A stretch of 64,000 nucleotides of DNA from Protoeuglena noctilucae (lineage: Eukaryota): contig OY253680.1 of the NCBI GenBank assembly GCA_958009085.1, positions 1 through 64,000 of the forward strand, in the 5' to 3' direction. The position numbers and the translations under genes are program-made. The notes beneath the pieces are model-generated. The model ran no database searches and was not told the DNA's origin. It saw nothing but the letters and a program-made list of their open reading frames with translations. Position 1 is the stretch's first letter; each line of letters begins with the position of its first letter. Positions 1,729 to 63,900 of the stretch are shown one piece after another.

Positions 1729-4233
1729 ATGGCGGACGAGGGGACGTCGATGGCACAGGCCAGCACCAGTCAACCCAAGGAGGGTCAGCCGGGGACCGCG
1801 GAGGAGCTCGTGGATCTCCCAGATCTTCGTTTCGACGGCAAGTTTGCGGACTTCGACCGCAGCAACAACCGGCAGGCGAGTGCTTCCGCGGGGGGGCGTG
1901 GTTGTGAACCGGTGGCCTGTCCCCGCACCGCGCTGCGCCGGCGCCCTCGCGACCGCCCTGCCCGACGCGGGCAATCAGAATTCACCCCGTCGCCGCTTCC
2001 CCATCCGCGATTGGCCGCCCGCCGCAGGTGATCAGCTCGTGGGCAGGGTCGGGGCAGCACCGCATCGTGCGGACGTTCCACTCAGACCGGGTCGTCGGGA
2101 ACGGCTCTTTCGGAGTCGTGTTTATGGCAACGGTGAGCCGCAGCCGCGGCGGGGGCTCCCGCGCGTCTCTGCGCGAGCGGCCGGGTCGCCCGGCGCTTGC
2201 GCGCTGTTTTCTCCGCGCGACGCCCGCCCCGCGCCCCGCCGCAGTGCCTCGAGACGGGCCAGAAGGTGGCGATTAAGAAGGTGCTGCAGGACCGCCGCTT
2301 CAAGAACCGCGAGCTCGACATCATGCGCATGGTCTCCCATCCCAACATCGTCCGCCTCCTCCACTGCTTCTTCACCTACGACCGGCGAGTGCTGAATATC
2401 ATGCGCGTTGGTAGTTTGCTTGATGAGAAGATATGCCATCCACGCACCGCCACTCCACTCTCCACTCTCCACTCCACTCCGCGGGAGCAAGATGTCTCTC
2501 GACCGTTTCAGCTTTGCCAAGAAAGCAACCCCTTCTGCTCCCCTCGCCTCCCTCGCAGGGACGACATGTATTTGAACCTGGTGCTCGAGTACGTGCCCGA
2601 CACGGTGTACCGCCTGTCCAAGCAGTACGCCAAGCGCGGCCAGCGCATGCCTGCCGAGGAGGTCCGCATGTACGTGTACCAGATATGCCGGGCGCTGCAC
2701 AGCATCCACCAGCAGGGCATCTGCCACCGCGACATCAAGCCCCAGAACCTCCTGGTGGACTCCGAGTCGCATGACCTCAAGCTCTGCGACTTCGGGTCCG
2801 CCAAGCAGCTGCGGCGGGGCGAGCCCAACATCTCGTACATCTGCTCGCGCTACTACCGCGCCCCCGAGCTCATCTTCGGCGCCACCGACTACACCACCAA
2901 GATCGACATGTGGAGCGTGGGGTGCGTCATGGCCGAGCTCTTCCTGGGGATGCCCCTGGTGAGATGATGGGCGGGGAGTGGGTGTGATTGGGGGAGTGGG
3001 AGAGTGGGGGAGTGAGGGAGTGGGTGACTGGGGTTGACGGGGTGACTGAGTGGGTGACTGGTTGTTAAGATGCCGGCTGTGGGTCAAGCGCAGTGTCGCA
3101 TCCCCGCCTGCGTTGGGCACCCGCACAGTCGCCCACATCAACACCCTCACCGTCACCCCCACCCTCACCCTCACCGCCACCCTCGCCCTCATCCACACCC
3201 TCACCCTCACTGCCACCCCCACTGCCACCCTCACCCACACCCCCACCCACCCCCTCACACTCCCCCCCTTCACCACCCCCCCCAGTTCCCCGGGGAGTCC
3301 GGCGTCGACCAGCTGGTGGAGATCATCAAGGTGCTGGGCACCCCGACGCGCGAGGAGATCCGCGCCATGAACCCCAACTACACCGAGTTCAAGTTCCCCC
3401 AGATCAAGGCGCACCCCTGGTCCCGGGTGTTCTCCAAGACCGTGCCCCAGGAAGCCATCGACCTCCTCAGCTGCTTCCTCCAGTACGACCCCACCAAGCG
3501 CATCTCGGGTGAGATGGGGGGGGGGGGGGGGGGGTTGGGTTACACAGCAAGCGCATCTTGGGTGAGAGATGCAAGAGGTGTTGATGAGGTGCAGATACGG
3601 TGTTGTGTGGGTGACACGGGTAGTATGAGCGCATGTTGGGTGAGAGAGGGGGTGGTGGTGGGGATAACACAGCAGGCGCATCTCGGGTGAGGGGATGGGG
3701 TGGGGGTGTGACATGGGTAATATAAGCATCTTGGGTGAGGGGGGGCGGGGCGGGGGTCGGGGTGGGGGTAACACACCAACTGTCACCAATACCATTCACT
3801 GCGTTCTTAACATCCCTCCCCCCTCACCCCCCCGCAGCGATCGAGGCCATGGCTCACCCCTTCTTCGACCCGCTTCGCAAGTCGGGGGGCTCCCTCAACG
3901 GCCTCCACTTCTGCAACTGGGTCGCGGGGGAGCTGGACGGGGTGGACGCAGCGCTGGTGGAGAAGCTGCAGCCGGCCAAGGTGACACATGCACTGCCGGG
4001 GGTGGGGTGGGGTGGGGTGGGGGGCTGCGATGTGTGGGGACGATCGATCAGTGCTGACGTGGGTGGGGTGGGGGGATGCGATGGGTGGGGACGATCGATC
4101 AGTGCTGACGGGGGTAGGCCGGCCGGGTCCACGCACCATGGCGTGTGACCTCGCGTCAACATTACATCCACATCACATCCATGCATCCCCCTCACTCACT
4201 CTCTCCGCTCCGCCTCCGTCCCCGCAGTCGTGA
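1729..4233 (+). CDS. GSK3: Shaggy/glycogen synthase kinase 3 (7 exons)
   Basis: Exons ~1729-1875, 2028-2132, 2245-2384, 2559-2958, 3286-3508, 3838-3980, 4228-4233 splice in frame. Motifs [65 protein letters not shown]. Introns 1 and 3 have GC donors. Confidence 0.97.
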
Positions 4234-5122: not shown

Positions 5123-8100
5123 TCACGCCACCGACCGCGCCTCGTGCTTGAGTGCCTTCTCCGTGGCTTCTTCCACAATCGCCTTGAGCATGCGCTTGGC
5201 CTGCTTGACCGCATCCGCAGACGGGCCCTCAATATACAAATACAGCTTGCGGTCGCCCTCGGGTATCTTGGCGCCGGGCTTGTAGTAGTTGCCTCTGACC
5301 ATGATGGAGCACTGGGTGGCCTCGGTGATGTCGCGGAGGTTCTCGCGGTGCGTGACCTTGTGGCTGAGGGGGGGGGAGGGGGGGGTAAGGGGTGAGTCCA
5401 AAACAATCCCTTACAACACATCCCCTCACCGTGCCTGCTGCGCTCACTCATCCCCCCAACACATGCCATCCACACCTCCCCAACCCCATCCACACTCACC
5501 GCGCGTTCTGCACAAAGTCGTTGATCTCCAGCTCCGCACTGAGGGCCGTCCACTCGTTGACGCTCCGGGGCTGGGAGGCGGCCATGGCCGACGCCTCCAG
5601 TGTCTGGTTGAGGCGGTCGATGACGCTGGCAGCGGCGAGCCGGGAGTCCAGGGATGAGCCGCCAGAGAGGGCGGCGGCGATGGCGGCGGCCTGGGGGAGG
5701 GGGGGGTTGGGGTTGGGGTGGGGTGATTGTTGGGAGCAGCGGCGATGGCGGCGGTGCAAACGGGGAATGAAAAATGGAGTACATAGAAAAATAAACCCAT
5801 TCCATACAAGATGTAAACCCCCAGTCACTTATCCCCCTCCCCTCACCTGCGCGGCTGCCCGTGACGCCTCGAGTGACGCCTCCGGCACCCTCGCACTAGC
5901 ACCCCCACTCGCACCGCCACTTGCACCCGCACCACTCGCACCGCCACCCGCACCGCTCTCCTCCCCAGCTGCGCGGTCGAAGCGACTGCGCCGGGGCTGC
6001 CCACTGACAACCCCACTGGTACCCACACCCGCACTTGTACCCGCACCCGCACCCGCACCCGCACCCACCCCCGCTTGCACCGGGCGCGTCATGCCCGGCC
6101 TGCCCACCACGGGCGGCGGGGGCGGCATGGACGCCGCGTCTGCGCTCGCCGTCTGCGCTGCTCCCGTCGTGATGCCAGTCGTGGTGGGCTTGCCAAATGC
6201 CTCGAGGTCGTCGTCGTCGTCTGCGGTGTCGCGCTTGGTGGTGGGGGCGTCTGCAGGGGGAGGGGGGAGGGGAGGGGTGAGTGGGGGGGATCGGGTAGGG
6301 TTAGTTTGGCATGTGTGAGAGGGGAGTGGAATGGGGGGAGGGAAGGGCACGATTGGAAGGGGGAGGTACATGAAGTGGTGTGTGCGAATGCGCCAACACA
6401 AACACGCACACTGCTAACAATCCATCGCAACCACGCCCATGACCCTCCATTCAACCACTCCCGGCCCCTCACCCACCCCCACTCCCCCACACCCCCCCCT
6501 CACCCCGCCCCCCCCCCCACCACCCACCATCCTCCAACCCCCACCCAAACTCACCCACGTCCACCAGCCCGTGCTTCTGCACCTCCGCGGCCCTCTCCGC
6601 CTTCCTCTCGCTCTCCTCCTGGTCGTCGAATTTGAATCCCGACCCACCATACCCCGACCCGTGCTTGGTCGCCCTTCCTTCCTTCACCGCCGTTTTGAAC
6701 TCGTCTGCCAGCTTGAGCAGGTCTTCCGGCACCGGCGGCCCCGCGTCTTTGAGCGCTTTGACGAGGTCCGGCGCGTACTGCGACTCGTCGGGTGCGATGA
6801 AGGTGATGGCCGTGCCCTGGTTGCCCGCGCGCCCGGTGCGCCCCACCCTGTGCACGTAATCCTCCAGGTGATTGGGCACATCGTAGTTGACCACCAACAC
6901 CAGGTCCGCGATGTCGAGACCGCGGGCGGCGAGGGAGGTGGCGATGAGCACGTTGCACACGCCGGAGCGGAAGTCCGCCACGGTCGACCCGCGGTCCGCC
7001 TGGTCCTTCCCCCCATGCAGGGACAGGCAGGGGTATCCCAGCTGCAGCAGTTCCCGGAACAGGTGGTCGCAGGCGTCCTGTTTCTGCACGAACACCAGCA
7101 CCTTGCCGCGGTCGTACCACTCGCCAAGGATCTCCAGCAAGCGCAACAGGCGGTCCTGCTGGGGCCGCACTTCCACGATCTGCTGGATCGATGCGTTGAC
7201 CACCGCGCGGCCGCCCACGAGAATCTCCACGGGATCTGCCAGCAGCTGCCTGGCCAGGTGCTCGACTTGGCGGGGGAAGGTGGCGGAAAAGAGCACGGTC
7301 TGTCGGTCCGGCCGGACCTGCTCCACCAGCCGCGTCACTTGCGGCTCGAACCCCATGTCGAACAGTCGATCCGCCTCGTCGATGACCAGCATGGTCACCC
7401 GCCACAGATTGGTGATGCGCCCGTTGCCAGTGACCAAGATGTCGATCATGCGTCCGGGCGTGCAAGCCACCATCTCCGTCCCGCGTTTGAGGTCCGCGAT
7501 CTGCGCGCCCACCCCGCTGCCGCCGTACACCGCCACGCACCCCAGCCCCACCACCCGCCCGAACCGCCGGCACTCGCGCGCGATCTGCGCCACCAGCTCA
7601 CGCGTGGGTGCCAGCACCAGCCCCACCGGCCCGTCGCCGTCCCGCAGCGGCGGCTGGTCCTTGATGTGCCTAAGCATCGGCAGGACGTATGCCAGCGTCT
7701 TGCCGGAGCCAGTCTTGGCGATGCCGATGCAGTCGCGGCCGCTCATGATGGCCGGGAGTGCCTGGGCTTGGATGGGGAGAGGGGCTGCGAACCCGGCCTT
7801 GCGCAGTGCGTCTTGCAGTCGCTGGGACAGCCCCGCCTGGTTCCAGGATGTGATGGGGGCGGGGACGTCCCGGCCGCGCACGCGGATGCCGTCCATCGTG
7901 CGGCGCAGGTGCTGCACGCCGTCCTGGGTTGAGAGGGGAGGGGGTGAGAGGTGGTGAGAAGTGAGAGATGAGAGAGGGGGAGTGAGTGGGGTGAGGACAG
8001 AGGGCAGAGGGGAGAAGTGACACCCCTTGCATACGACATCTCAATAACCCAGTGCAGCAGCGCACTATGGCAATGCTAACACCCACCATCCCTGTCCATG

Positions 8101-10561
8101 CCACCAACCCCATCCCACACACAACACCGCCCCACTCCACCACTCATCTCACATGTACCCCACCCCATCCCCTCACCTAGCTCATGTTGGCCAACACCAT
8201 CACTTGCACATCACATCCACACACACCCACATTCCACCTCTCACCTTGCTCATGTTGGCCACCTCGGGGGGCGGGATGTAGAAGTTGCGTCGGAAAGGGG
8301 GGAACGTGTCCGGCCTCATCTGCAATAGATCCGCCAGCTTGTCCCCTTTTGTCAGCTTCCCCACTCGCAGTGCCTCTGCCCACGCGGCGTCGTCATCGAG
8401 GATGTTGTCGGGGGATGGGCCAGCTGTGTCGGTGGCGGAGGGAGCCTCACCTTCTGTGGGGGGAGAGGGGGGGGGTGGGGGAGTGGTGAGGGTGGGGTTG
8501 GGAGGTGGGGGTTGGGGTGGTAGTGGGGGTAGAGGTACTGGGCTGAGAGGCGGATTGATTCTCGGCCATGCATCAATCCCACAAGAGATCATCACTTGCA
8601 ATACTATCCTCGCACACATCCATCGACCAGCACCCATCACCCGACGCATGGCACGACACCCCACGCACCGCACCCCCTCTCCACATCCCCTCACCTGACT
8701 CGCTCCCTGCCCACGGGTCCTCTCTCAAACTCAGCACCTCCCCCCTGCGACCCACCACCGCATCCCGCACCGCCCCATTCCCCGCCACACCACCACCACC
8801 GCCCTTCCCCGCCCCCGCCCCCGCTGTCCCCACCTCTCCCGTCCCCCCACCCCCCTCCGCCCCATCCCCACCCAACTCCTCCAACCCCAGACTTTCCAAG
8901 GATATCCCCGGCGATGCGGGAGTGGCTGGCTTGACGGTAGGAGTGGTGGCTGCCTGGCCCCCTTGCAGTGCGGGTGCGGGGGTGGGGGGCGCGCCAGTGT
9001 GTGAGGGAGAGGGGGGGCCGGTGACGTCAGCCCTCCCCACATCTGCGGGGAAAGGCAAAAGGGAAGGAGGTGTTAAAGTGTTATATAATAGTAGTGGTGA
9101 TGACGCTTGGAGCATAGGGAGAGGGAAGGGATGCTTGGGTGTTGGACAATAAAGCTGAGTGGCAAGGTGTAACAGATGTGATCTGCTAACATATCCCTCA
9201 CCGATCCTGTCTGCCCCGATCTCCGCCATGAATGCGTCCAGGTCGTCCTCCTCCTCGACCCCCAGGCCCAGCCCCAGGTCATCGTCCACAGCCGCCACCC
9301 CAGGGGCCGCGTCGTCGTCATCGCCCGACTCTGCAGGAGAGGGGTGACGGGGGAGAGTAGTGAGAGTGGGATTCGAGTGGAATCAAGCACTGCGGTTCAT
9401 GGTACGCGCAATGTTACAATCGGCAACAATACAGAGCAATGCTTCCGTTCGACGCCAACGGACGCGACACCCGAGCAACCCATCCCACTCACCCATGCCC
9501 ACACATGCAGTCACCCCATGCCCATTCCCTCTATCCCCACTCACCCATGTCAATGTCGTCGTCCCATTTCATCGCCGCCCGCCGCCTCCGCCCCGCACCC
9601 CGGCCGCTCCCCGCCCCCGCATCCCCCGCCCCCTCCCCCGCATTACCAGCAGCAGCAGCAGTGCTCGTTCCCGCCGCATCCGCCGCACCACTCCCCCTGT
9701 CTTTCTCCCTATCACCCCCACCCCCTTGTTCGCGTGCCGTGCCCCTTCCATCCCCACGGTCGCCCCCATTGGCCTCTCTACCGCGACTGCCGTCGGCACC
9801 CCTACCATCACGCGCCCTGTCCCTCTCCCTATCCCTCTCCCTTTCCCGATCCCTGTCCCTCTCCCTATCCCTATCTCTCTCCCTTTCCCTTTCCCTTTCT
9901 CGGTGGTCGCCCCGGCTGCTGTCACGGTCGCCCTCCCTATCCCTGTCCCGCTCTTTGCCACGATCCCTATCTCGTTCCCGATCCTTCTCCCTATCCCTGC
10001 CACGATCTCGATCCCGATCTCTGTCCCTATCCCTATCCCTGTCACGCCCCCTCTCGCGCTCCCGGCTGCGACTGCGGTCCCGCCCTGAGCCGCGCGCCGC
10101 GGGCCTGGGGCTGCCGCGCCGGTCACGATCTGCGCGGAGGAAGTAAAAGAAGTTTTGCACACGATGGGCGGGGAGCGTGCGAAGGGGGGCAAGTGCAGGC
10201 GCTGAGCATCGCGCTGCACACCTCGCGGCTTGGAGGAGGAAGGAGAAGGAGACTCGGACCGCGAGCTCTTGCGGTCGCGGAGACCCGGGGCATCCGCGGA
10301 GGGACGCCTGCGGGGGAGAGGGCGCGCGGGCGGTGAGCGGTGCGCGGCTGTGCTGCGGCGCCCGGCCACGCGCGGAGGGACGGCCCGCGGCGCGCGCCGA
10401 GGCCGGTCGCTGAGCCAGCGGGGGTCAGAGAAGGAACAGCATTACCAATGCTATCGATCAGAGAAGCTGCTGCGGCGGCATGTCCACGAGCGGCGCGGCG
10501 CGCGGCGCGCAAAGCAGGCGTACCTGGGCTCCAGTCCCGCTACCGGTTCCCGGCTCCCCAT
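5123..10561 (-). CDS. DDX46: DEAD-box RNA helicase DDX46/Prp5 (RD/RS-rich N-terminus, helicase core, C-terminal KH-like domain)
   Basis: RD-repeat exon ~9548-10130, DDLDAFM motif, FRRNFY. Core exon ~6556-7926 has AKTGSGKT, PTREL, DEAD, SAT, HRVGRTGRAG, GYGGSGFKF. C-terminal ELEINDF...RGNYY...LYLYIEG. Start inferred from the in-frame exon 10561-10524. Confidence 0.93.
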
Positions 10562-11484: not shown

Positions 11485-14400
11485 ATGAGGCAGTTCCCGG
11501 CCGTCCTGGGCTGCGGGGCGGCGCCCCCGGTCCTGGTGTGTTCGTGCGCAAGACTCCGCCCCGCGCTCGCCCCCGCGCGCACCCGGCGCCCCGCCCCCGA
11601 CTCCGCGCTCTCCGATATCATCCGCAGGCCCGCCGGGCGCGCGCCCTCCCCCCGCTGGCCCGCGCGGCCCCTCCCTCGCTGCTGCGCAACGTGGCGACGC
11701 GTGCCGAGGGCGACAACGGCGCAGCGCAGGCGAAGGGGAAGGGCAAGGGCAAGAACAAGGGCGAGGAGGAGCCCCCTTCCGCGTACCGCGACACGGTGAT
11801 CCTGCCCGACACGCCCTTCAGCATGCGCGCCAACAGCAAGACCCGTGAGCCCGAGCTGCAGGCCTACTGGGCAGAGCGCCGCATCTACGAGCGCCTGCTG
11901 GCCCGCAACGAGAGCGGCGGGTCGTTCGTGCTGCACGACGGCCCCCCGTATGCCAACGGCGACCTCCACGTCGGCCACGCCCTTAACAAGGTGCTGAAGG
12001 ATGTGGTGCTGAAGTACCACCTCATATCTGGCAGGCAGGCGCGGTTCGTGCCCGGGTGGGACTGCCACGGCCTGCCGATCGAGCTGAAGGTGCTGCAGAC
12101 GCTGTCAGAATCGGAGCGGGCGGGTCTGACCCCGCTGGGATTGCGCGCCCGGGCGGCGGCCTTCGCCAAAGAAGCCGTGGATCGCCAGATGGCCGGTTTC
12201 AAGCGGTACGGCGTGTGGGGCGACTGGGACCAGCCGTACCTGACTCTTCAACCGGAATACGAGGCGGCGCAGATCGGCGTGTTTGCCGCCATGGCGACCA
12301 ACGGGCACATCTATCGGGGCAAGAAGCCCGTCCACTGGTCTCCCTCCTCGCGAACGGCGCTGGCCGAGGCAGAGCTGGAGTACCCAGAGGGGCACACCTC
12401 GCCCTCCATCTACGGTGAGGGGCGGTGGGGGGTGGGGGGGGTGTGGGTGTGTGGGGTGGGTGTGGGTGGATGTGGGGGTGTGGATGTGTGCGGTGTTGGG
12501 GGTTTGTGTGGGATAGATGGATGGATGGGCGTTGAATGGGGTGTGTTTGAGTGTGTTTCGCTTACCACCCGCATCCCATCCCCTTCCCTCTATGCCCCCA
12601 GTGTCGATGCCAGCAACTGACGTTTCCGACAAGGTCCCGTCCGACCTGCGCACTGCGATGGTCTCTGAGGGTGCGTCCTTCATGGTCTGGACCACCACCC
12701 CCTGGACTATTCCGGCCAATCTGGCCGTGGCTGTCAACGACCGCCTCGACTACGCGGTGTGCCGCGTGACGGCGGTGGAGGGGAGCAAGGCGGTCGCGCC
12801 CGAGGGGTGAGATGTGCATATTGCATGGCATAGCATAGTTGAGAATGGTTGATGAGGGGAGCGAGAGTAGCGTGGCATGGAATGGGTGGTGGTGGCGATG
12901 AGTGCGCGGAGCGTGGTGGTGGCGACGGTAGGCACAGACTGTCTTACCATCCCATCCCCCCCAGTCTCGTGATCATCGCCAAGGACCTCGTCGACTCCCT
13001 CTGCGCCAAATTTGGATGGAAGGCGGACATCGTGGGTGTGGCGACGGGCGCGATGCTCGAGGGAAGCACGTATAAGCACCCCCTGTATGATCGCACGTCG
13101 CCTGTGGTGGTCGGCGGGGATTACATCACGACGGAGTCGGGGACGGGGCTGGTGCATACGGCGCCAGGGCACGGGCAGGAGGACTACCAGGTGAGAGAGG
13201 GGGTGGTGGGGTGATGGGTGATTAGGGGTTGTGTTTTATGGGGTGGGGGTGGTAGTAGTGAGGGGGGATAGTGGGTGGGCAGGAGGACTACTAGGTGAGG
13301 GATGGGGGTGGGTGATGGGGTAATGGGTGTTGGGTGGTGATGGGTTGGGTGGTAGTGGGGGTGGTGGTAGGGGTGGTGCTGCGAAGGTGCGTGGGGGTTA
13401 GTGAGAGTGGGAACACGGTGCATCCAAACCCCATCAGTCTTCATTTATCTTATCTTTTGTGGTTATGTTGACACGTCCCTCACTGCATCACCCCATCGCA
13501 GGTGGGCATGCGTTACAACCTGGGCCTGCTCTCCCCCGTCGATGAGGCGGGTCGCTTCACGGCGGAGGCGGGGGCGAGGTTCGAGGGGATGGCGGTGCAG
13601 GAGGAGGGGAACAGGGCAGTGACGGAAGCATTGCAAGAGGTGAGGGGGCATGCAATGCTAGTTATTGATATAACTGAGAGTGCATTGGACGACTAGAGAT
13701 GCAGGAGCGCTACCCCCACAACCACCATTCATCACTCATCACCCCTCTCTCCCCTCCCCCTCGCAGTGCGGCTGCCTCGTCATGCAGGAGCGCTACCAGC
13801 ACAAGTACCCCTACGACTGGCGCACCAAGAAGCCCACCATCTTCCGCACGACCGAGCAGTGGTTCGCGTCCGTCGAGGGATTCCGGAACGCAGCTTTGGA
13901 TGCAGCCAAAGCAGTGGAGTTCGTGCCCAGCGCGGGGGCGAATCGGCTGATGGCGATGGTGGAGGGGCGGTCGGACTGGTGCATCAGCAGGCAGAGGAAG
14001 GTGAATGGGGATGAATGGGTGGGAATTGGGGATGGTTGTGATGAGTTGCGTGTGATGATGAGGATTAGTAGTCGTGTTGGATATGATGAGAGGGAGTGGT
14101 GCATCAGCAGCAGTTCTGTTGTTAGCGTTACATGTCACCCGTCAACATTCAAAAACCCCCTCACCCGTCAACATTCAAAAACCCCCCCTTCTCCCCCCCC
14201 CCCCCCCAACAGTGGGGCGTCCCCATCCCCGTCTTCTACCACCGCCAGACTGGCGAGCCGCTCATGACGCCAGAAACGATGGGGCACGTCCAGAAAGTGG
14301 TGGCGGAGAGGGGGTCCGATGCCTGGTGGGAGATGGGCGAGGCGGAGCTGCTGCCGGAGGTGAGGGGTGGGGGTATAAAATTTGAATTTAATGAGTGATA

Positions 14401-25326: not shown

Positions 25327-25436
25327 TGGGGTGTGTTAATTCTCTTGATGCGAACGTTTGATTGAATGCGCCGGCATGCATGCTAGGTCAACTCGCCAGC
25401 TAAGATCGAGCTACCAACGCAACAATAGCTCTGGGC

Positions 25437-49343: not shown

Positions 49344-51793
49344 TCAAACAGCCATCCTGGTCATGCTGGCCCCCTTGGACGGCCCCCTCGTGACTGCCGC
49401 CCCCGCACCCCCTCTGCCCTTCCCTGGCTCAGATCGCATCGCAGCCTCCTTCGCTGCCCTCTCCTCCGCAAAACGCAGCTGGCGGTCCTGCTCCCTGCGA
49501 GGCAGGTGGGGGAGAGATGAGAGAAGGATTGCTTTCGTTACTATCACTACTCAAATCACTGCTCCCGGCGAGGTAGATGCGAAAGAGACGAGGGAATGAT
49601 TGAAATCGTTACAAGTACTCTGCATCAGCCCATCCAAATCCATCCCCATTCATCCACATCCACAGCGCTAAGACCATCCACAATCATCAACATTCAATCC
49701 CTCGCCTGTACTGTTCCCTCTTGGCCTGCATGAGCCCATCCAGCACGCTCTCTCGGTACGCGTCCGTCGCCTCGATCCCCGCCACGCGCTTGGCCGCCAG
49801 AATCTGCTCCTTCTTGTCAGAAACGGCCTCCTCGGGGTCGGGGAAGGTCTGGGGAGAAGGGGGGGGGACAATATGGGTGAGGGGGTGAGGGTAGTGGGTG
49901 GGGTATGTGGCGTGAGGGCGGTGGGCGAGTGTGGTAGGAGCGGCTCAGTGTTTGAAAGGTTATACAAAATACTTACTTACAATGCACTTCCCACCCAACA
50001 TCTAACAACCACTCATCCCCCATTCCCCACTCGCCTGCCCCACGTGCACCTCCCACGCCTTGATGACGTCCTTCGGGTCACCCCCCGCACCCCCCGGCGG
50101 AGCCCGGATCTTCTCGAAGCTGTCGCAGCCCGCCGGGATGAACAGCAGAGAGGCGGGGTCGGTGCGGAGCCCCTGCAGCAGCTTGCCGCTGCCCACCAGG
50201 GGGGGGTCGTAGAAGGCAAGGAAGTCGCACAGCGTGCGCACCAGGTCCTGCTGTTGCAGGTACAGCTGGCTGCGGGGGAGGGAGCGACGGGATGGAGAGG
50301 GTGATGATACTATTGATCTGATCGAGTTCTGTCGCCAGCCCTACCGTCTTTTCCTATTTCACCACCCCGCCCATCCCCATCGCTCCCCTGCCCCACCCCA
50401 CGATCACCCTCCCCAGTCGCCTGCTACCATGCTACCATCCCACCCAACCCCACACCCCCCAACCCTTCCCCTCGCCTGCTGGCATCGCTGCCCTTCCCCA
50501 TGGCCCCCAGATAGGCCAGCGTGGCTCCGTGGTAGTGGCACACGTATCGCAGAGCGTTCCCCAGCACCGCCCACATGTCAGACTCGTTCGGGGACCCCGC
50601 GATCTGGCGTTTCAGGACGTCGTGCTTGGTGCCGATCACTGCCACCTTTGGGGAAGGGGAGGGCGAGAGAGGAGGTGAGGAATGTGTGAGAGATGCTGTC
50701 AAGTGCGGGTGGCGAGAGCAGGGGTGTGAGAGATGCGAATGGAAGTGCAAACGCATTGGGGGCCCTTACTGGTACTGGTACTGGTACTGCAACCCCCTGC
50801 ATCTTCCTGCTGCCATGTACAGTTACTCAACAGTCAACACTCGCCTGCACCCCCAGGAAGTTGACGTTGGATGCGTCGGGGTTCTGCTTCCGCTGGGCGT
50901 CGAAGAACTTGTTCTTGGCCCTCTGACGCAGCTGCTGGGGGAGCCTGGGGGCGATTCAGAGGCAGGGAATCGTGATGCCATGCACACCCTGCCACCGTCA
51001 CCGCTCATATGTGCCCCATATAGACATCCATATCATACACACACTCACACGCACCCAAACATCCATGCCACCGTCCCCCCTCAGTCACTCACTTGTGCCC
51101 CTGCTCCTCAAGCTGCCGGTACACGACGTCGAGGCGGTCGCGCACCATCTGCAGCCGCTGCACCAGCGACGGCACGGCCTCCCGCGGCTTGCTGAGGTCC
51201 ACCGTGATGATCACGGCGCCGGTCGCGAGCTGCTTCGCCGGGAGCATCACGCGCGACGCCAGCTGCGCCACCACTTCGTCCGTGCCCGACAGCTCCCACA
51301 GGTGCGCCACGTCCTGCTTGTCCAGGTTCGCTGCGCGCAGGAATGAAATTTAAATAGGTTCGCCGCGCAGGGTGCGCCGGGAGACCTGCGAGAGGGCGCA
51401 GTGCGGAGACCGCAGAGTGCGCGCACCGGCAGTCTGCCCCGTGCGGAAGCCGTACTGCGCCGCGAAGCCGGGACCAGCCTCAAAGTCCTTACTAAGCATG
51501 ATGCGGTTCAGGATGGTCGATTTGCCCGACTTGGGCGGGCCGAGGATGTAGGTCGAGGACCTGCGAGCGTCACGGCGTGCGTCCCGCGGCTCGGAGCGTG
51601 CCGGCTTCGGGAGAAACGCAACGTCAACAGCTCCGTTGAGTCTCCGCAATGACCCCACCGACACAGCGCTCGCTCACTCTCGGCTCTTGGCGTTGCGCTC
51701 CGTCTCCTTCGCCGTCTCAATGGCCTTAGACCACAGCGTGCCCTCGCGCCGGATGGCGGGCACGAATGCCGGACGCGGCTTCGTCGCAGACAT
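49344..51793 (-). CDS. DYNC2LI1: Cytoplasmic dynein-2 light intermediate chain (retrograde IFT)
   Basis: N-terminal TLWSKA, P-loop GPPKSGKS, VAHLWELSG, IITVDLSKP, VIGTKHD, LRYVCHYHGATL, FIPAGCDSFEKI. 9 exons, four with GC donors. Confidence 0.85.
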
Positions 51794-52568
51794 GATGATG
51801 AACCGGTCTCAGCTGCTAAGGCCGAAGGCGGACCGCGGGCGGGGCGCCCAAGGCGCGGCCATGCCAAGGGGCCCCGTGGCGCAGCGGAGGTGCGGAGTCC
51901 CCGTCAGCGAAGCAAGAGACTTAGTTTCGACAAACACGAAGCCACAGCTCGGAGCGTTGGCCAGATACCGCTGTTGACGGGGCCAAACCAGTGCGTTCCT
52001 TGGTTCACGTCTCGTCTTTGTGCTCAAACACGCCAGCGATGACAGCGCGGGGGATGCGACCAGGTCACGGCGCCTGTGCGTGTGCTTCTGTCGCGACGCC
52101 AGGGCGTCGTGCCGGCCCATCAGCTGACCCGACGTGGAGTGCCAGTACACGGACATCTGGCGCCAAGTTTTCGCGCTTCACACGGACCCGCGTGGACCTC
52201 GCGCGTGTCAAATCGCACGAGCTGTCGATAAACGAGCTGCAGCGAGAGCATCAGTCCCTAAGGCCACTTCCAGGAGCGTCAAAACCATCGACCCAGCAGG
52301 TGGGAGTCCGCCCTCGCTCGCGCAACTCCATTGCAGGTTTGTTCGTCACATCTATGTCCGCTGAGCGTGGCCTTTGCCCGTTCCCGGCTCCTGCGCGCGC
52401 GTCGGGGGGGTCGGAAAGAGCCGTGCTTTTCGGCGGCCGGGGCCGCCCCAACGGTCGCCGATTGGAACTTCTCGGCCAGTCAGCGTGTTATAACGTCAAC
52501 AATGATTGCATTAGGAATGACGAGACTTCCCTTCGCGCCCTCCCAGAGCCGCGCCAGGTGGAGTCACG

Positions 52569-54195: not shown

Positions 54196-54732
54196 GACAG
54201 ACGGGAACGTGCAAAGAGCTTCCCTGCAGCTTTGAAGGGAAAGGGAAGCTCACGGCTCTTCACAGTGCGCCCGCTTCCATGCCACGTTTCTTGCGTTCCT
54301 AAGCACTACTCACAGGGTCCTCGTGCTTTGCATGCTGCAGTGTCAGCATGCCATGCTTCCCACCCACCCAGCGCCCTCTCCAGCGCCTTGTCCTATCGCC
54401 GCGCGGCTGCACGATCGCCCAAGCGCGGCCACGTTTGGGCGAAACCACAAAGTGCCCAAGACCAATTTCGTCGCTCGCCGTCTCCCGCCCCATCGCTGTT
54501 TCTGACGCGAGGAGTGGTGTGGGTTTGCCTGCCATGCGCTGCCTCAGCCGTGTTTCCATGCTTGCTGAGCAAGGCTGGATAACAGATAGTGGGGCAAGTG
54601 ATTGAAATGTGATCCATTCAAACGCTAATCGCATTGCTAGTCGCAACACCCCTCACACATCTGACCCCCCCTGCTGTGCGTAATGACATCCTGCCTAGTT
54701 CTCTTGGCCCTGTGGGCGCACATTACATCCCA

Positions 54733-57700
54733 TCACGCCGCCTTCTTCCTGGCGAATATGTTGACGGTGGTCCTCTGCTCGGGCGGCGGCACCTCTGCCA
54801 CGCGCTTGCGGCCCAGCACCGACCCGCACTTGCCCGACACATTGGCGCGGTCCTGGGGTGTGAAAGCGACGTTGAGGGTGTGAATCTAAGCAATAGCACT
54901 TTCTTATCACTGTCCCAGCCCATACACCAATGCAAACGCAAGCTTCGCCCCTCACCTGCCCCAGCACACTCCCACCCCTCGCTTCCTTCGCTGGGACCGA
55001 CGATCGCTTTGGGGCGTCCCCCACGCGGCCATCCTCTGGCACCTGAGGATAATGGGTAGCATATGGTAGACGTAGTATTTAATGTATATAACGTCCTACT
55101 TTGTTCCCCTTCATCTCCCACACCCACACCACCACCACACCCGTTCCGCCACCCACCCCTCCCCTCACCTCCTCTCCCTCCTCCTCCCCCTCCACACCCC
55201 CACCCCTCCCATCCACCTCCACCCCCCCCGCACGCCCCTGCACCCCCACTGCACCCCCCACTGTACCTCCTGCCCCCACCGCCACCCCCACCCCACCCAT
55301 CGCCATTCCCCCAGCCACCCCCACCGCCTGCGCCATCAACGCCTCCTCCTCCGCTTGCTGTCTCTCGTGCTCTGCCTGACACCGCAGTTCCAGCAGGGCC
55401 TGCACCCGCTGAGTCAGGGCCCCGTTGCGCTTGGCGGCCACCAGGCGAACGGCGCCCTCCAACTGCAAGAGTGGAGAAGGTTGGGGGTTGGGTGAGTGAT
55501 GGAGAGTGGATGAGTGAGTGTTGAGGGAGAGAGAGTGAGTGAGTGGAGATGGGGCAATGGGCGGCCACCAGGCGCACGGCGCCCTCCAACTGAGGAAGGA
55601 GCATGAGTGAGTGACAGCAGTGTCCAACCATCATTCATTTCATCCACTACCCCCTCACCATGTCGATGGTTATCAAATGTGCTGCCAGGTCGTATGCCTT
55701 CAGGAAGTCGTCCTCGCGCAGAGCCTCGTTCATCTCACGCAGGGACTGGGAAGGGGGGAGGGGGAATATAGAATAATGAGCGGTAGAAGAGGGAATATAG
55801 GAAAAGAGCGGGTTTGCGGTTGGTGATCTTTGCATCCACCGCCATCCATCAGCGATTATCATTTATCTCAATGTATATCTAATACATATTATTGCCGCAA
55901 TTAAACCCATATATACACCCATACACCCTCACCAGCGCGTCGATGGCCTTCTCCTCCCTCCCCAGCGCCTCGATCGCTGCCCCCTCCCCCACCGCAGCTG
56001 CAGCTCTCGCTTGGGGCAGCAGCAGCGACCGACGCACGCGCTCCTCCTCCATCTGCCACCCGGTCGACTGCAGCACGGGGACCTGCGGGGGGAGTAGAAA
56101 GGCATATCATATTTAGTAATTATGATGGTTATAAATATTATAATACAAATTTTATACTATTAAAATATTAATATTAGGTATCGTTACCATTACTACTGCA
56201 AGTATTATAGCGTAACATAGTTATAGTTATAAATCAGTAATATTATCATTATAGTTAATATACACATCCACCTCCCCCTCCTCACCTTATTTGCGAACCT
56301 CTGCTGCACCGGCCGCGGGTGCGGCTGCGGGTGCTCCCCTTTCCTCGTCACGACGCAGTGGGTCTGGTGGACAGACATGCCCACCATGAAGAAGTCCTCC
56401 TGGTCGTTCTTGCGATAGTCACTGGCGTTAAAGACGGGGACCCACTGGGGAGGGGAGGGGGTGGGGGTGGTGAGGGTGAGGTGTGAGGGGGTGAGTGGGT
56501 GGGGAGTGAGGGGGTAGCAGTGGGGGTGGCAGTGAAGGTATGGGGGGTGGGAATGGGAAGGGAGGTGAGCGGGTGGAGCGATGCAATAAAAACAACTTCA
56601 CAACCTCCCATCCACACATCCCGACCCCCCACTCGCCTGCCCCCCCCAGTCCTCGGCCCTCACGCGCCCCACCCCCGCAGAGTCATACACAGCCCAGCAA
56701 ACCCATTCAATTCAAGCACAGCACATTCAAATCCAACACAGTACATTCAAATCTAACACAGTACGTTCAAACCCCCATCACTCGCCTGGCCCCCCCAGTC
56801 CTCGGCCCTCACGCGCCCCACCCCGGTAGAGTCATAGATCGCCAGCAGACCCTCCTCGGTGAACCCCGCCCACTGCAGTGTCGCTTTGGGGCTCAGGGGC
56901 ACAGGGCCGGAGGAGACCAGCTGACGCGTGCCCACGTCCCAAGACTGGGGGGGTCGGATGGGATGGGGTGTGATGGTGTTATTTACTATTGTCATGGTTT
57001 TAACAGTGGTACGTACCACTCGTGTGAGTGGCGCGACTGGTTGTTTGCGGTGAGTGCAATTATATGTGTTGCCAGTCTCACCATGTAAGAGAGGGCGTGG
57101 TCGCCGTCCGGAGAGGGGGGGCCTGCAGATGGGGAAGAAGAGCGTTTTGTTCATGCATATGAGCGAGAAACGAGGATTGATTGTATCAATCGCACTTGAC
57201 AACCCTCACACCCCACCCAACCACCCTCTCACCTGCCCTGTAGATGGCAGCCAGGCTCTCCCCGCTCCCCACCAGCGCCACGGGGTCGCCCGGCAGCGCC
57301 AGCACCGCCGCCTGCACCCCGCCCAGCGTCACGACACGCACGTTCCTACGCACCGTGGCGGCCGCCAGAAACCCGGTCCCGGCCGCCACGCACGCCGCGG
57401 CCTCTCCCTCGGGAAGCGGCAGGGCCCACTCGTGCCTCCCGCGGGCCCACGAGTCGAAAGACAGAAACGCAATACTGTCAACTGACGCGTCGCCAGCATC
57501 GCGGCCGTCTTTCGCTCCTCGCGCCGTGATCAGCGCCACGCCGTCTTGGGACAGAGCCGCCGCGAATGCACCGGCGAAGTCGTTGTGGTTGATGGGCCGG
57601 GCGCGCGCCATGGTGTCGTGCATGTGAGCGTCGATGGTCTGGTACGCGCCGCTGTCTAAGCAAGCCACGTAGCCTGACGGGGTGTATGCCAGGAAACGGC

Positions 57701-60322
57701 GGCGGGAGGTGGGGTGGAAGGGGGTGGAGCCCGGGTGCACGACGGGGTGGGGGGGAGGGAGGCGGGCGGTGGGGCGGGGGCGGAGGCCCTTGGAGCGGTG
57801 GCGGCGCTGGGGGTGGGGGAGAGAGGGTGGGTGAGGTGGGGGTGAGTGGGTTTGAGGGAATGGTGGGTGATACGCGGCGAGTTGCACAACTGTCGAGTAC
57901 TGTAACGCTTGTGGACGCTGCACCATGCCACAACCCCCACCGCACCCTTGCAGTCACCACCCCAACAACCCCTCTCCTAACACCCACCTTCCCCCTCTTC
58001 CCCAGCTCCTCATCCTCCTCAATGAAGTCATTCATCGACTCATCGTCCGAAGTTGCCTCGTCTGCCCCCTGCCCCTCCCCCTCCCCCGCATCCTCAGCTG
58101 CCCCGTCTTGCACAGCCGCGGTGCGGGCGGACATGATGGAGAGGTCGGAGGGGGACGCCATGCCCTGAAGTGAATGAGACGGGATAAGATGAATGGTGAA
58201 AAGATGATTATTTGAAAATGATGAAAGGAGAGATGGTGGGGTTGGAGGGGGGAGAGGACAGGGCGGTCAGTTGCCACCCCCCCCTGCCAGTACACCCGTC
58301 AGGCAGTCCCTCGAAACCTCACCTCTGGCACCGCCCCCTGCCAGACACGCGTCAGTCCCTGGGCGTCGACGGCGGCCAATGCGTTGCCCTCCGGGGCCCA
58401 CGCCAGGGCCCAGGGCGCCTCGTCCAGTTTCGAAAACGCGACCTCCTTTTGGGATGCGGCCTGAGGGGAGGTGAGACAAAGGAGTGGGATTGGAGAACAG
58501 CAGAGAGAGAGATGCCTTGAGATGTGTTATGGGGAGTGGTCGAGATGAGAGACATCGACGGACGGGGCAAAGAGCGGGGGGTGCACCACCATCACCTCTA
58601 GACTATTCTATTGTTGCGCCATTGTACTACCACCACGCCTCGCACCCCCACACACAGCCATCAACCCCAATGATGACAACACACATACGCACCTCGAACA
58701 CCGCCACACCGCCCTTGCGGTCCGCGGCGGCCACGTAGAGTCCGTTGGGGGAGGGGGCCACGATTTGAATGGGGCCCTTGAGAGAGGGGGACGTCAGGGG
58801 AGACAGGTCCGACCATGACAGGCGCTGGGGGTGGGAGGGAGAGGGGTTGAGATTGATGGGAGAGGTGGGCAGGCGGTGTGGCGAGTCCTGTGAGCATCAG
58901 TCTCTCTCTCTCTCTCCATCTTTCTCCCTCATCTCACCGCGCCCCGCATGCACTCATCTCCCATCCATGCTCAACCAATCATGTCTCATATGCTCTCACC
59001 TCCAATGCCTGCACGTCCCCCTCCACCCCAGGCACCAGCAAGTGGCATCCCCCGTCCGGGTGCCACGCGACACGGCACGCCGTGCCAGAAGCGGGGTTGC
59101 TCTTGGGCTGCGGGTGCGCGGGCGATGAGCGATAAGCGATGAGCATCGAGGGTGGAGTATGGGTATCTAAGGTAGAGTTAGAGCAACGGGGTTGCTCTTG
59201 GGCTGCAAGTGGGCAGGAGATGAGCGAGTGAGGGTATAGAAAGAACCCTTCTACAACCCGCATCATCTCACATCAGCTGCCACCCCCACATCCGCTCTTA
59301 ACCCCACCAGCTCCCATCAACACCCGCCACCCGCCATCCGCCACTCCGCTCACCGCGGCCCTCCGCCTGTGCCACACTTGCTTCCCCGTCGCCACGTCCC
59401 ACACCGCCACGGCCCCGTCCTGACCCGCCACTGCCAGAAACTGACCCTCGGGGTCGTAGGAAACGGACGCCTGAAACGCCGGGGCCGGCAGCGTCGTCAG
59501 GTGGCGCGCCTCATAGGCACCCTCGCTCTCGGCACCCTCGGCGGCCACCAGGCGCATCACGCTGCGGGGGATGAGGGGGTGGGAATGGGGGTGCAGGTGT
59601 GGAGTGGAGTGGCGTGCGTGGGCGGGTGAGGTGGTGGGAAGGTGGTGGCTATTGTGGCTGCTGTGTTGGGTCTCTGCTGTGGCATGTGCGGCTGCTGTAA
59701 CAGACGTAGCACCACCGTCTATCACGTATCATCTATGGCCCTCACCGCACGCCCTCGTCGTCCCCGGCGATCGCCAGGAGCTCTCCGGACGGCGAGAAGG
59801 CCAGGGACCGCGCGGGGAGCTGGCACTTGGCGACGACGCAGCGGAGGTCGCCGGAGGGGCTGTAGAGGCGAACGTGGCAGTCGTCAAACGCGGCCGCAAA
59901 GAAGCGGTGCTGCGGGTCGCCCGCCAGGGCCAGGACCGCCGCGCCGGGGCCCGAGACGCGCGACATTTCGCTCGTCTTGGACATGTCGCGGATGCACATG
60001 TCGCCGTTCGCGCCGCCCGTGACGAGGCTGCGGGGAGCGCACGCGCACGGGGACCGTCGATGCTCGCGACCGCGTGATGCGTTTTTGACAGAGCGCAGCA
60101 GAGTGAGTGGATAGCTACAGAAGATAAGAATCGCCAGGCGCGCCCGGAGGGCCCGAGCGCGCCCGCCGGGCGATATCGGGCATTCGTAGCGAGATGGCGG
60201 GAGCGGGAAGCGCGTCACCGCAGAGGCGCGGGCTGGTCATCGGGCCCCTTCTCCCGAACGAAGCAGAGGTCCGCCACCCCCGCGGCGTGCTCGCCGGGCA
60301 GCTCGTCGCCGAACCCCGGCAT
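54733..60322 (-). CDS. WDHD1: CTF4/AND-1 (WD40 + SepB domain replisome factor)
   Basis: N-terminal WD40 repeats (LVTGGANGD, LAFSPSGELLAIAGDDEG, YDPEGQFLAVAGQDG, VAWHPDG), acidic linker, SepB signature HPGSTP...RRFLAY..G, WAGFTEEG, PQPHPRP, C-terminal NIFARKKAA*. About 15 exons. Confidence 0.87.
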
Positions 60323-60901
60323 CGCGCACTCCCAAGCACGCGCTGGCCCAACTCGACCCGGCGCTGGCTCAGCAGAGAAGGGCAGCGGACACCCAATACC
60401 CACTGCTTGCAAGTCGCACAGAGAGGTCGTCTAGGCGCCCAGTAGGTGCGTCAGGCGGGCTATCAAAACACACGCTGGGCTCAGGATGGGCCGATGGCTG
60501 GAGTCTAGCTCTGGTATGATGCAAAGTGATGCAGATAATGGGCGAATTGACGATTTCGCTCAAATCCTCTCGCATCTGGCACAGGGGTCAGCGATCCCGT
60601 CCGTCTGACTTCCCGCTCGTCGCCTGCGTTGCATGGGGTTCAATCCTCGCTGCCCTTATCATTAGAAGACGGCGCTGGGGTGGCCGGTTCGACCAACGGA
60701 GACGTCAGCTCGTCCGGACGGCCTGCCACCGTTTGAACCGTGCGTCTCTCCTGACGAACCCCGGCGACTCTGGGCCCTCCTTTCCCAGCCCGCGGAGGCG
60801 CAGATTGCTGCTTTGGATCCTTTGCCACAGCCAAGCGTTCGTTTGGAGTACTTGCGGGGCAACGGGCGTGCATCCGGTGGGCGACGCTTGTCGTGCGGCC
60901 C

Positions 60902-63900
60902 ATGGTGCTCCGAGAGCACTACCAGCGGAAGCACGATGTCGGCCGCGCCAAGTCCGCGCCACGGCGGCGGAAGTCCAAGCCGCGGCCGCCCTGGGACGTG
61001 AGCTCGCGCGCGCTGGCTCGCACTATGTTTCCTCTCCCCATCCCGCGCCGCGCGCCGAAGCTCCGCGCCCGCCCCTCGCGCCGCAGGACACCAACCAGGA
61101 TCTGAGCAAGCTGCGGCTGACTCCGGCCCAGCTGGAGGCGCGGCGGTCGCAGCGCGTCTCCCACAACCGCGTTGTCGTGACGGGTGCGCCCCCCGGCCGC
61201 CCCGCCTCACCGCCGCCCCTCCCGCGCATCCATTTTACTTCAACTTTCCCAACCTGCATCGCAGAGGAGATGCGCCGGCGTTACCAGGCGGGAGAGGACG
61301 AGGACGAGGACGACTATGCGGCCGGCATGGACGAGGAAGAAATGCGGCGTCACGTGACGCACGCGCTGCTGCGGGCCGCGGGGGAGCGCGCGCGAGGGGC
61401 CGCGGCGGACCCGGCGCCCGCCCCTGCGCCCAAGCGCACGGCTCTCGAGGTTTTGCGTGACTTGCGCGCCGACCGCCTGCACCCCGAGACAAGGGACTTT
61501 GAGGAGGAGGAGAGGGCGTTTCTGGCATCGCAGACGCGCAGCGCGAGGAGGTCCGCGTGAGGGGCTGCGGGGTTGTCGGGGTGGTTGGGGGCCCCGTGCA
61601 GCCACCCCACTCCTCTGCTTGCCGCCACCCCACCACCCACAACCCATCAACCCCACCCACCGCACCCATCTCCGCAGCTCCAACTCCCGCGTCGGATCCC
61701 GCGTCGCGAGTCGCCAGCGCATGGGCACGGGCGCATCGCTGGGGCGGTCGAGCCCCGGGGACGCGCCGCAGCGGTCCCTCAGCAAGGCGTCGCTGCCATC
61801 CGACACCCGGTGAGGATGTGGTGTATGCAATGTAAAGGTATGGATGTGATGTGAGGCTGTGTGCATGGATGCGATCGCATTGCAGCACATCCCTGCTGGT
61901 TTGCCTCACCTCCTGACCCTCCTTACTCTCAACCCCCAACAACCCTCCCTCCCCTCACCCTCCTCACACCCTTGCCACTCCCACAGGGCTCCCTCTCCCA
62001 CCCGCCGCATTCCCGCCATCGCCACCGCTGCCGCACGCGACGACGCCGGCCATGGCCCACGCCCCGCCTCCCCGCCCAAAGCCAGCGGGGCACCAGCTGC
62101 AGAATCACTTGATCTAAAACCAGGGCTGGGTCAGGTCACGCGAGCGGGCGTTGCAAACGCAGCTCGGGACGGCACAGCGGGGGCGCGGGCGGTGGGTGGT
62201 GAGGAGGAGCGGGAGGGCGGTGTAGGGGGCGGTGGATGGGGGGCCGGGGCGAGGGTACGGGCGCGGCCAGGGTCGCCCACCAGGCTGCCGCGTGTGTCTG
62301 AGGGTGCGGACGGGGCAGGGAGTGCGAGTGGGGTTGGGCACGGGGAGGTGGGGGCGGGGGCTGGGGTGTCTGTGGAAGGGGTTGAGGGTAGGGGTGGCTC
62401 TGGGCAGCGCGGGGGTGTGGGCGGAGTGGCGGGTGCAAGAGAGAGGAGCGGGGTGGTGGGGGATGGGTCTGGGTTGGAGGCACGGGGGCGAGCCCCAGAG
62501 GGCCGCCCGCCTGCACCAGCCTGGGACGAGAATGGGTTCGAATCCTGGGACAGGAATGAGTTCGAGTCCTTCCGGGACCACACCACGGCGGTGCTGACGG
62601 CCATGCAGCGGCAGCTGGGGCAGCTGCTGGCGGCAAAGGGGGCGGGTGTTACAAGCGGGGTGGGTGACAGGGGCGGGGCGGGTGGGACGGGGAGGGCGAC
62701 AGGGACAGATGGCGATGCGCATTGGTCGAGGCGGGTGGTGGCGGGGCCTGGGGGTGGGCTGGAGGAGGATCGGCGCCCTGCGTTGGCGAATGCGGGGGCG
62801 CACCCTGGCGGGGCGCGGTTCGTGAGGCGGGGAGTGGAGGCGGATGCGGGGGTGAGGGGCGCGTGGCAGGGTATGTGTGGGGCTGTGGTTGGTGTGGTTG
62901 TGGCAGAGGCAGCTGTGGTTGTGGGGGGCTGTTGTGGCTATCTTGCAATAAGCGTATCCTGCGCCCAGGTATCGCAGGAGGGTCCTCCCATCACGGCCTT
63001 CACTCCCTACGAGCGTCGGGTGCAGGCGGAGGGGTCGGGGCACAACATGGAGTCGACCCTGGTGAGTGAATGAGGAGAGATTGAGTGAGTGAGTGAATGA
63101 ATGAGTGAGTGAGTGAGTAAGGAATAGACCCTGGTGAGTGAATGAGTGGGTGATTGATGAGTCCAAACAGTCGTGAGTGCAAGGGGTAATCAGGTGAGAA
63201 CGCAAGTCACGAGGAGTCAACTTTAGTGAGTGAGGAGTGGTGAAGGAGTCGTTGTGTTGCACCATCTCACTTCGTTGCACACTCCTCACTGCAATGCACG
63301 CACCTCGCCTTGCACAGTCTCAAGTCGTCGCACGCCCTCGCCGCCTCGCAGAGAGCGTCCCTGGCGCCGCTGGCATCCGCATCCACTCCCCTGGGGACCT
63401 TTGAAGAGGTCTTTGGGCGGCCGGCGCGGTACGTCCCGCCACCGCGCCCCGCTTGGAGGGCGGGCGACGAGGGGAAGGAGGAGGAGGGGACGGCGGCAGC
63501 GGTGCGGCAGGGGCGCAGCAAGGTGCGTCTGAGGGTGTGTTGGGCAGCGCTGCTGACGGTGGCAGTGCACACCGCTCTGCCAGCGCTGTGCGTGTGCCAG
63601 CGATACAGCGCTCGACCTCTTTCACTCTTGTCACGCTCGTCCCTCGCGACAGCACTCGGCCCCCCCTCCCCATCCCCAAAGCCCATCCCGTGCATCACAG
63701 CAGCGACGCTCACCCTCTCACCCTCCCGCCCCCCTCTTCCCCCCCAGGCCCACCCCAGCAGTCGCAGTCACGGCAACGTGGGTGCCGAGGTGGACGAGGA
63801 GGCTGGCCTGCCCTCGTATGCCTCCATGCGACGTGCCACAGGGTACCGGGCCACGGGCCCCGACGTGGGCGTGCGCATCACGCACCGCGCTTACATCGGA

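Follow-up and report, generated by a model that had tools for sequence, protein, structure and literature searches.

About one in five introns (18/89 by a strict test) in the first 64,000 nucleotides (nt) of Protoeuglena noctilucae contig OY253680.1 (assembly GCA_958009085.1; hereafter the window) carry a direct copy of the edge of an exon that they abut, and we refer to these copies as echoes. The pattern is real and statistically solid; loci with this anatomy have been described singly in humans, and what may be new here is no more than the density. Most likely, junction echoes follow from short introns and ordinary tandem duplication, with no special mechanism needed. We consider it probable that they are what is left of small direct duplications, produced in the short introns of a GC-rich, intron-dense marine green alga by the process that also makes mini- and microsatellites.

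Exon-edge copies and controls

The exon-intron map was generated with a self-written Viterbi gene finder, anchored on RNA contigs and curated, and all counts inherit its errors. Exon boundaries rest on RNA contigs (15 introns), the gene finder and single-exon Pfam matches. The curated set comprised 89 introns, with 78 stable between two parameter sets of the gene finder, 15 confirmed by RNA and the rest curated; 13/15 RNA introns were recovered by the gene finder, but these 15 belonged to its training set. Intron length ranged from 79 to 447 nt, with a median of 181 nt (n=89).

Queries consisted of only the 40 exonic nt beside each junction, which excludes help from the shared splice consensus. 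At a score of at least 14, own-intron matches were obtained for 9/89 donor edges and 10/89 acceptor edges, as compared to non-cognate rates of 0.0014 and 0.0010; the comparison of cognate with non-cognate exon edges, which an earlier annotation made from the sequence alone (the first-pass annotation) had proposed as a check, thus places the cognate edges far above the others. When all 89 introns were ranked, the own intron scored highest for 11/89 donor edges and 13/89 acceptor edges, against an expectation of 1.0 on either side. Reverse-complement queries yielded no inverted copies (0/89 donor, 0/89 acceptor), and no matches came from the intron that flanks the exon at its other end (0/73 and 0/73). 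From these two null controls it follows that the echoes run in direct orientation and occur only in the intron next to the exon edge. Direct high-scoring segment pairs (HSPs) at offsets of 25-400 nt numbered 47 at a threshold of at least 30 bits and 21 at a threshold of at least 38 bits, with 1.8 and 0.25, respectively, expected from the density at offsets above 2000 nt.

Exon-edge copies in at least 15 introns had been reported in the first-pass annotation, and a direct copy lies in the given place at all 15 junctions that it named. About five further echoes were found beyond that list (5674/5739, 8172/8240, 45606/45686, 58275/58329 and 49488/49559). Identity is 59/59 nt for the best pair (45777 vs 45914), followed by 97%, 95% and 93%, and declines to the heavily decayed copies in a GSK3-like intron. 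The distance from copy to copy is 42-178 nt, some echoes belong to arrays with the first unit across the junction, and acceptor-side copies are as frequent as donor-side copies among the window introns. The decoy GT/GC or AG, also described at first pass, is retained in 14/14 strong echoes whose alignment reaches the splice site, which would occur about 1 time in 10 by chance at ~92% identity and is not significantly above chance; in 4/18 strong echoes the alignment stops short of the site.

Local repeat events amount to 4.86 per 10 kilobases (kb) in the window and to 1.62 in distant marine relatives, the latter being a rough baseline from 24 of 27 eligible loci (at least 15 kb, no N), which all surround one neighbourhood and are non-independent. 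Metagenome contigs searched with the ABC1K exon gave no match; searched with the DEAD-box exon they gave 80 loci, with only 61-67% protein identity and hence too distant for intron comparison.

Position of duplications relative to junctions

For each unit length, we counted every way of placing two adjacent copies without harm to the coding sequence. Placements in genes that span a junction with at least 12 exon nt account for 66% (80-nt units) to 89% (150-nt units) of the total. The 31 repeat events of at least 30 bits were assigned to junctions (19, two of which, 18244 and 48467, rest on uncertain gene models), intron interiors (8), exon-exon pairs (2) and unmodelled DNA (2). Junction events therefore make up 19/27 of the junction and intron-internal events, and uniform placement predicts 18.2 ± 2.3 (P(≥19) = 0.46); stricter score cut-offs gave 13/19 (13.4 expected) and 11/16 (11.6 expected). 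The junction bias claimed at first pass is not supported by these figures. An equal duplication density in mid-intron and intergenic DNA had been named there as an outcome that would speak against such a bias, and for mid-intron sequence this is what the counts indicate.

A mechanism targeted to junctions, acting through breaks at R-loop or G-quadruplex borders of the G-rich 5' halves of introns or through splicing-coupled damage, would account for the involvement of a junction in 19/31 local repeat events. It would also fit the low number of events in the 21.9 kb of non-genic or unmodelled DNA (2 vs 17.2 expected), a deficit that could mean that introns are special. The junction share within genes, however, equals the uniform expectation, and detection favours junction events, with purifying selection holding one partner, which would if anything place the true share below the observed one. 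The deficit was rejected as a sign of intron specificity: Pfam finds G-patch, Rad51-like and ChaC-like genes in the 21.9 kb, and as the stretch thus contains unmodelled genes with their coding sequence, the contrast is uninterpretable. We regard junction targeting as very improbable.

Probable intron growth by local duplication

Introns with echoes are longer than introns without (median 246.5 vs 169 nt, Mann-Whitney p=8e-6), with carriers among 8/14 introns of at least 250 nt and 10/75 shorter ones. For the 18 strong-echo introns, the median of 299.5 nt is reduced to 171.5 nt, an ordinary intron length, after subtraction of one unit. The idea put forward at first pass, that introns grow by duplication across junctions with the spare copy absorbed, is in agreement with this excess of about one unit, and its extension to repeated rounds that leave an age series is in agreement with the multiple copies of differing decay found in several introns. 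Tandem structure of the whole unit is apparent at 46947-47380, 29383-29575, 13173-13370 and 16535-16773, and in two IleRS-like introns the alignable part of the units extends to 95-128 nt. Head-to-tail arrays within one intron occur at 29383-29575, 46947-47380 and 3491-3769, and most other loci have two copies only.

Since the introns are short, a duplication of 50-150 nt that spares the coding sequence would usually have one end in an exon. If the spliceosome keeps to the exon-proximal site, the second copy of exon edge and splice site would become intron sequence, and the intron would gain one unit in length. Further rounds, by slippage or by unequal exchange between copies, could then build arrays with the first unit across the junction, and the low-complexity intronic part of each unit would be expected to turn over fast by more slippage. 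The mutational mechanism, the neutrality of the copies and the use of exon-proximal acceptors are points that we infer.

Independent assembly and RNA contigs

Contigs of the short-read metagenome run X5, which stems from a separate study and is independent of the likely source runs, were compared with the window. Five pairs (45214/45306, 45606/45686, 55433/55560, 58275/58329 and 59092/59187) lie in single X5 contigs with 0 differences; contig 55288-56670 holds both copies of the 55433/55560 pair, and contig 57810-62464 spans the 58275/58329 and 59092/59187 pairs. The three youngest long repeats coincide with X5 contig breaks, as is usual for k-mer assembly, and are unbridged there.

Assembly artefacts, or target-site duplications of a mobile intron family (introners), would be compatible with these three breaks and with the short G-rich motifs common to introns that appear at X5 cross-joints. 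Against both stand the five unchanged pairs, RNA contigs that end exactly at first copies, and the near absence of dispersed intron similarity (3 far vs 19 near HSPs at a threshold of at least 44 bits), with no multi-copy family in the window. We therefore consider either origin extremely improbable, and introners were rejected because the same HSP counts reveal no dispersed family of similar inserts in the window. Target-site duplications of introners supply splice sites. The echoes resemble introners in that direct repeats flank the added intron sequence, with one copy carrying the splice site in use; they differ in that the repeats measure 16-80 nt rather than a few nt and that the added sequence is local low-complexity DNA. 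Introner elements are described as transposon-generated introns (PMC9860276).

Metatranscriptome contigs of three runs were aligned to 44001-64000, and 15 of 38 RNA joints were listed, with 11 GT-AG and 4 GC-AG after the permitted shift. The joint of 45826 to 46193 is present in 3/3 RNA runs and skips the perfect copy at 45914. For the following exon, RNA contig pieces from runs X8 and X11 stop at 46988(+1), which is the earliest in a series of three near-identical donors. The exon-proximal donor is used at both 45826 and 46989, the two youngest donor echoes. None of the decoy donors starts any of the 15 listed joints (of 38), in contigs, which hide rare isoforms. RNA cover is absent or very low across most of 54.7-63.3 kb, including the Ctf4-like echoes. 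A loose end at 47139 (run X11) was considered as splicing from the second donor copy and discarded as uninformative, its 10 letters matching nowhere exactly in the window.

Uneven preservation within units

Besides the deficit of events in unmodelled DNA, several observations weigh against plain duplication followed by decay. The exon-derived part of a unit is kept far better than the intronic remainder, which is the opposite of the predicted order. Global identity of the spacers is at background in most events, even with the exon part 95-100% identical, and on the basis of local scores with position-matched controls the intronic remainder is unalignable in 9/15 events. Units 2 and 3 of intron 46990-47436, both intronic, differ in 1/49 columns of the exon-derived block (49 nt, G-rich) and in 23/76 aligned columns of the remainder (~30% different), and with Fisher p=4e-5 for this contrast, simple neutral decay at equal age is insufficient. 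As to splicing, only 15/38 RNA joints are listed, leaving room for minor decoy use, only 15/89 introns are RNA-confirmed, and at acceptor echoes it is the reading frame that points to the true acceptor as the one used.

Spacer homology exceeds every position-matched control in 6/15 events, among them the young pairs at 45777 and 55433, and spacers are often repeat arrays themselves, as with the 12-mer microsatellite between the copies of the 45826 echo ((GATGGTGACAGT)n-type array, 45836-45913) and the 20-mer minisatellite of 3.5 copies between those of the 56785 donor echo (56688-56778). Much of the preservation gap can be explained if a shorter duplication was followed by quick slippage. Possible contributors that we rank below plain slippage are conversion among the copies, constraint acting on the block, or copying of the block by itself.

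Templated insertion offers another account of the spacers. Here, just the exon edge and splice site (20-80 nt) would be copied ~50-150 nt away, with no whole contiguous unit, by locally templated repair at an intronic break, either polymerase-theta-like or by synthesis-dependent annealing with slippage onto a template close by. The 9/15 spacers that lack homology to the stretch beyond the echo would be explained, as would the globally unalignable spacers of the three most identical echoes (100%, 97% and 95%) and the arrangement in intron 55463-55658, where a full 127-nt unit cannot fit upstream of the echo without entering the upstream exon. This route is nevertheless unlikely, given the 6/15 spacers that beat all controls, 45777 and 55433 among them, the clear whole-unit arrays, and the ability of spacers, often mini- or microsatellites, to expand after a shorter tandem duplication. 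Templated repair also often produces inverted copies, and these were found at 0/89 and 0/89 edges.

The better preservation of exon-derived sequence could alternatively reflect exon-edge copies that are not inert but kept alike, or re-copied, apart from the rest of the unit, so that introns would expand around their splice signals; break-prone G-rich segments might use a neighbouring copy for repair, or selection might favour spare or auxiliary splice signals. We think this quite doubtful. That conversion or selection keeps the exon-derived copies alike as spare 5' splice sites, U1-binding sites or G-run splicing enhancers, making the echoes partly functional, appears distinctly improbable. 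It would account for the contrast between units 2 and 3 and for the retained GT/GC or AG, but the latter is within reach of chance as given above, older echoes are visibly decayed, and slippage-prone spacers inflate apparent divergence. Conversion by the exon is, moreover, contradicted by three differences from the exon copy that units 2 and 3 have in common.

Comparison with known systems

Small tandem duplication, which we prefer as the origin of the echoes, has precedents. Work by Gao and Lynch from 2009 is said to describe internal (intragenic) tandem duplications as a common mutation class in eukaryotic genes, and small in-gene duplications can reportedly take in exon-intron boundaries or whole introns and survive if the transcript is undisrupted. 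Relative to that type, the density here looks high, in a comparison that lacks a like-for-like figure.

Minisatellites spanning a boundary have been described for several human genes (PMC1557585), and the view that the kind is undescribed finds no support; the first-pass annotation had known of no description as a genome-wide pattern. In intron 7 of human F7, the first 37-base-pair unit of a minisatellite spans the exon 7 boundary, and the downstream pseudo-donors are functional, with only the most upstream donor used; similar cases are interferon-inducible 6-16, CBS intron 13, LMNB2 and PDGF intron 4 (PMC1557585). The window loci share with this type the head-to-tail units, of which the first holds the exon end and authentic 5' splice site, the identical or near-identical pseudo-donors repeated downstream in the intron, and splicing at the most upstream donor, here in RNA contigs at 45826 and 46989; the 42-nt EamA array and the three-unit ABC1K array are direct counterparts. 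A unit containing both exon edge and splice site is found in 14/18 strong echoes, which align across the junction, the other 4 being exon only. Unlike the F7 type as far as this source describes it, many introns are affected in one 64-kb stretch, mostly with two copies, the units are larger (up to ~150-180 nt), and acceptor copies are as common as donor copies.

In the model of Rogers (1989), tandem duplication of an exonic AGGT segment creates an intron, with potato RdRp as a case (PMC4974935). In both situations tandem duplication gives a second splice signal and the coding sequence is unchanged after splicing, but the echoes enlarge pre-existing introns and create no new one. Intron creation of the Rogers type was rejected for the window, as the echoes lie in mid-intron and the introns begin G-rich and close with a C-rich tail and CAG, as is normal. 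A keyword search of open-access text found no dense or genome-wide pattern of this kind in an alga, which is weak evidence of absence.

Implications

Introns of this short-intron, GC-rich alga would on our account gain length stepwise, one small duplication at a time. For genome scans, caution is indicated, as junction echoes follow geometrically from short introns. The loci also constitute natural experiments in splice-site choice, with identical donors 137-149 nt apart and with six intact upstream decoy acceptors (in the regions of 15273, 16610, 34254, 45214, 55592 and 59227) that have their own pyrimidine tracts, the acceptor case being the less understood. The one aspect that merits further study is the better preservation of exon-derived segments.

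Gene map of the window

Positions 1-204 consist of 34.7 copies of ACCCTA (a TTAGGG-type telomere repeat on the other strand), and the window therefore begins at a chromosome end. It has ~64% GC and dense genes with many short introns; GC falls to 0.505 at 26-28 kb. Most introns are polar: after an initial GGTGAG their 5' half is G/T-rich and microsatellite-like, while their 3' half is C-rich and leads up to CAG (e.g. 12415-12601, 13191-13501 and 46349-46537), and the composition of the two halves is roughly complementary. GC donors were assigned to 10/89 curated and 4/15 RNA-confirmed introns, the latter four all in one gene (49495-50844, minus strand) with CAG/GCGAG.

Single-exon Pfam matches were obtained for protein kinase, DEAD-box helicase, class I tRNA synthetase, EamA, kinase plus EF-hand, ABC1 and Mcl1/Ctf4, and the gene names given at first pass agree with them in kind. 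The best named relatives of the 456-residue DEAD-box helicase exon are the green algae Volvox, Micractinium and Chlorella (70-71% identity), with a best match overall of 82%, and near-identical DNA is present in marine metagenomes and metatranscriptomes. The unmodelled stretches 24180-28228 and 35444-43227 contain a ChaC-like open reading frame (ORF) at 24401-24853 (+), a G-patch ORF at 38268-39227 (-) and Rad51-like ORFs at 40228-41144 (+).

Catalogue of echo loci

Table 1. Echo loci in the window. Slashes between consecutive positions mark junctions; offsets are distances between copies, and scores are from the exon-edge query.
Position (strand)	Gene	Echo	Intron	Offset (nt)	Identity and remarks
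3491..3769 (+)	GSK3-like kinase (Pkinase match, exon 2560-2958)	~5 units of 47-80 nt, unit 1 spans donor 3508/3509; intronic units each repeat ...GCGCATCTYGGGTGAG	3509-3837		four decayed copies
5674..5754 (-)	DEAD-box (PRP5/DDX46-like)	acceptor side, 16-19 nt of exon start (5674-5689)	5691-6068	65	score 16.5, rank 1
8172..8261 (-)		donor, exon end + GGTGAG (8240-8261) recurs at 8172-8193	7924-8244	68	95%
13173..13311 (+)	IleRS-like class I aminoacyl-tRNA synthetase	donor, 18 exon nt + GGTGAG	13191-13501	104	91%
13699..13804 (+)	IleRS-like	acceptor side, exon nt +16..+38	13640-13766	83 upstream	
13972..14114 (+)	IleRS-like	donor side, ~22 nt before 14000/14001; copy near 14093	14001-14212		one mismatch + one gap; score 15.5, rank 1
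15273..15444 (+)	IleRS-like	acceptor, CCACCCC(G)CAG + 34 exon nt; 15273 pairs with 15400	15168-15410	127 upstream	93%
16535..16773 (+)	IleRS-like	acceptor, ~30 intron nt + 40 exon nt	16305-16733	115-120 upstream	unit alignable over ~128 nt at 76%
29383..29575 (-)	EamA (EamA Pfam match)	42-nt tandem array, ~4.6 units; high-coordinate unit spans donor 29553/29554	29245-29553		97%
34254..34418 (+)	kinase + EF-hand (CDPK-like)	acceptor, CTCACYCAG + ~45 exon nt	34112-34358	96 upstream	
45214..45338 (+)	ABC1 kinase	acceptor, CAG + 30 exon nt	45115-45308	92 upstream	91%
45606..45707 (+)		acceptor side, exon nt +6..+27	45496-45680	80 upstream	in X5 contig 44922-45806
45777..46066 (+)		donor, 50 exon nt + GTGAGAGAT; 45777-45835 = 45914-45972	45827-46192	137 downstream	exact, 59/59 nt; older decayed third copy near 46030-46066
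46947..47380 (+)	ABC1K	three units of ~140-149 nt; unit 1 begins 43 nt inside exon and spans donor 46989/46990, units 2 and 3 within intron	46990-47436		46947-46994 vs copies at 47096 and 47236: ~92-94%; acceptor 47436 from reading frame only
49488..49612 (-)		direct repeat at donor end of RNA-confirmed GC-AG intron	49495-49705	71	78%; just 7 exon nt in blastn HSP; score 14.5, rank 1
55433..55592 (-)	Mcl1/Ctf4-like WD40	acceptor, CAG + 30 exon nt	55463-55658	127 upstream (sense)	55433-55465 vs 55560-55592: 97%
56624..56852 (-)	(Mcl1_mid matches)	donor at GC donor, 51-67 exon nt + GCGAGTG	56445-56785	147-149 downstream (sense)	88-95%; 56630-56687 vs 56779-56836: 95%
58275..58355 (-)		donor side, ~30 exon nt (-33..-3)	58165-58322	53 into intron	in X5 contig 57810-62464
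59092..59227 (-)		acceptor, 25 intron nt + CAG + 16 exon nt	59108-59353	95 upstream (sense)	88%
63049..63162 (+)		donor (63061), 13 exon nt + GTGAGTGAATGAG	63062-63351 (predicted)	72 downstream	in GAGT-type microsatellite, yet exon nt and GTGAGTGAATGAG duplicated

At the 8172-8193 and 13277-13311 copies, TAG directly precedes the decoy GT, with T at position -3 (GCAAG to GCTAG and CCAG to CTAG), which with n=2 may be coincidence. The IleRS-like intron with the 14000 echo contains an exact 26-nt tandem repeat of two copies in its C-rich half (14135-14186). For the bin 45335-46001, which holds the (GATGGTGACAGT)n-type array, X5 word depth was 1126, as compared to ~15 elsewhere, indicating that the motif is very abundant in that sample.

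Two further direct repeats lie near gene ends. A 33-nt repeat (18244-18276 and 18321-18353; 97%, offset 77) is located at the predicted 3' end of a minus-strand kinase gene and could reflect either a last intron missed by the gene models or a duplication in the untranslated region (UTR). The other, of ~50 nt within 49227-49387 (84-85%, offset 112), is covered by an RNA contig that is gapless over 49137-49493, and is a duplication in the transcribed last exon or UTR.

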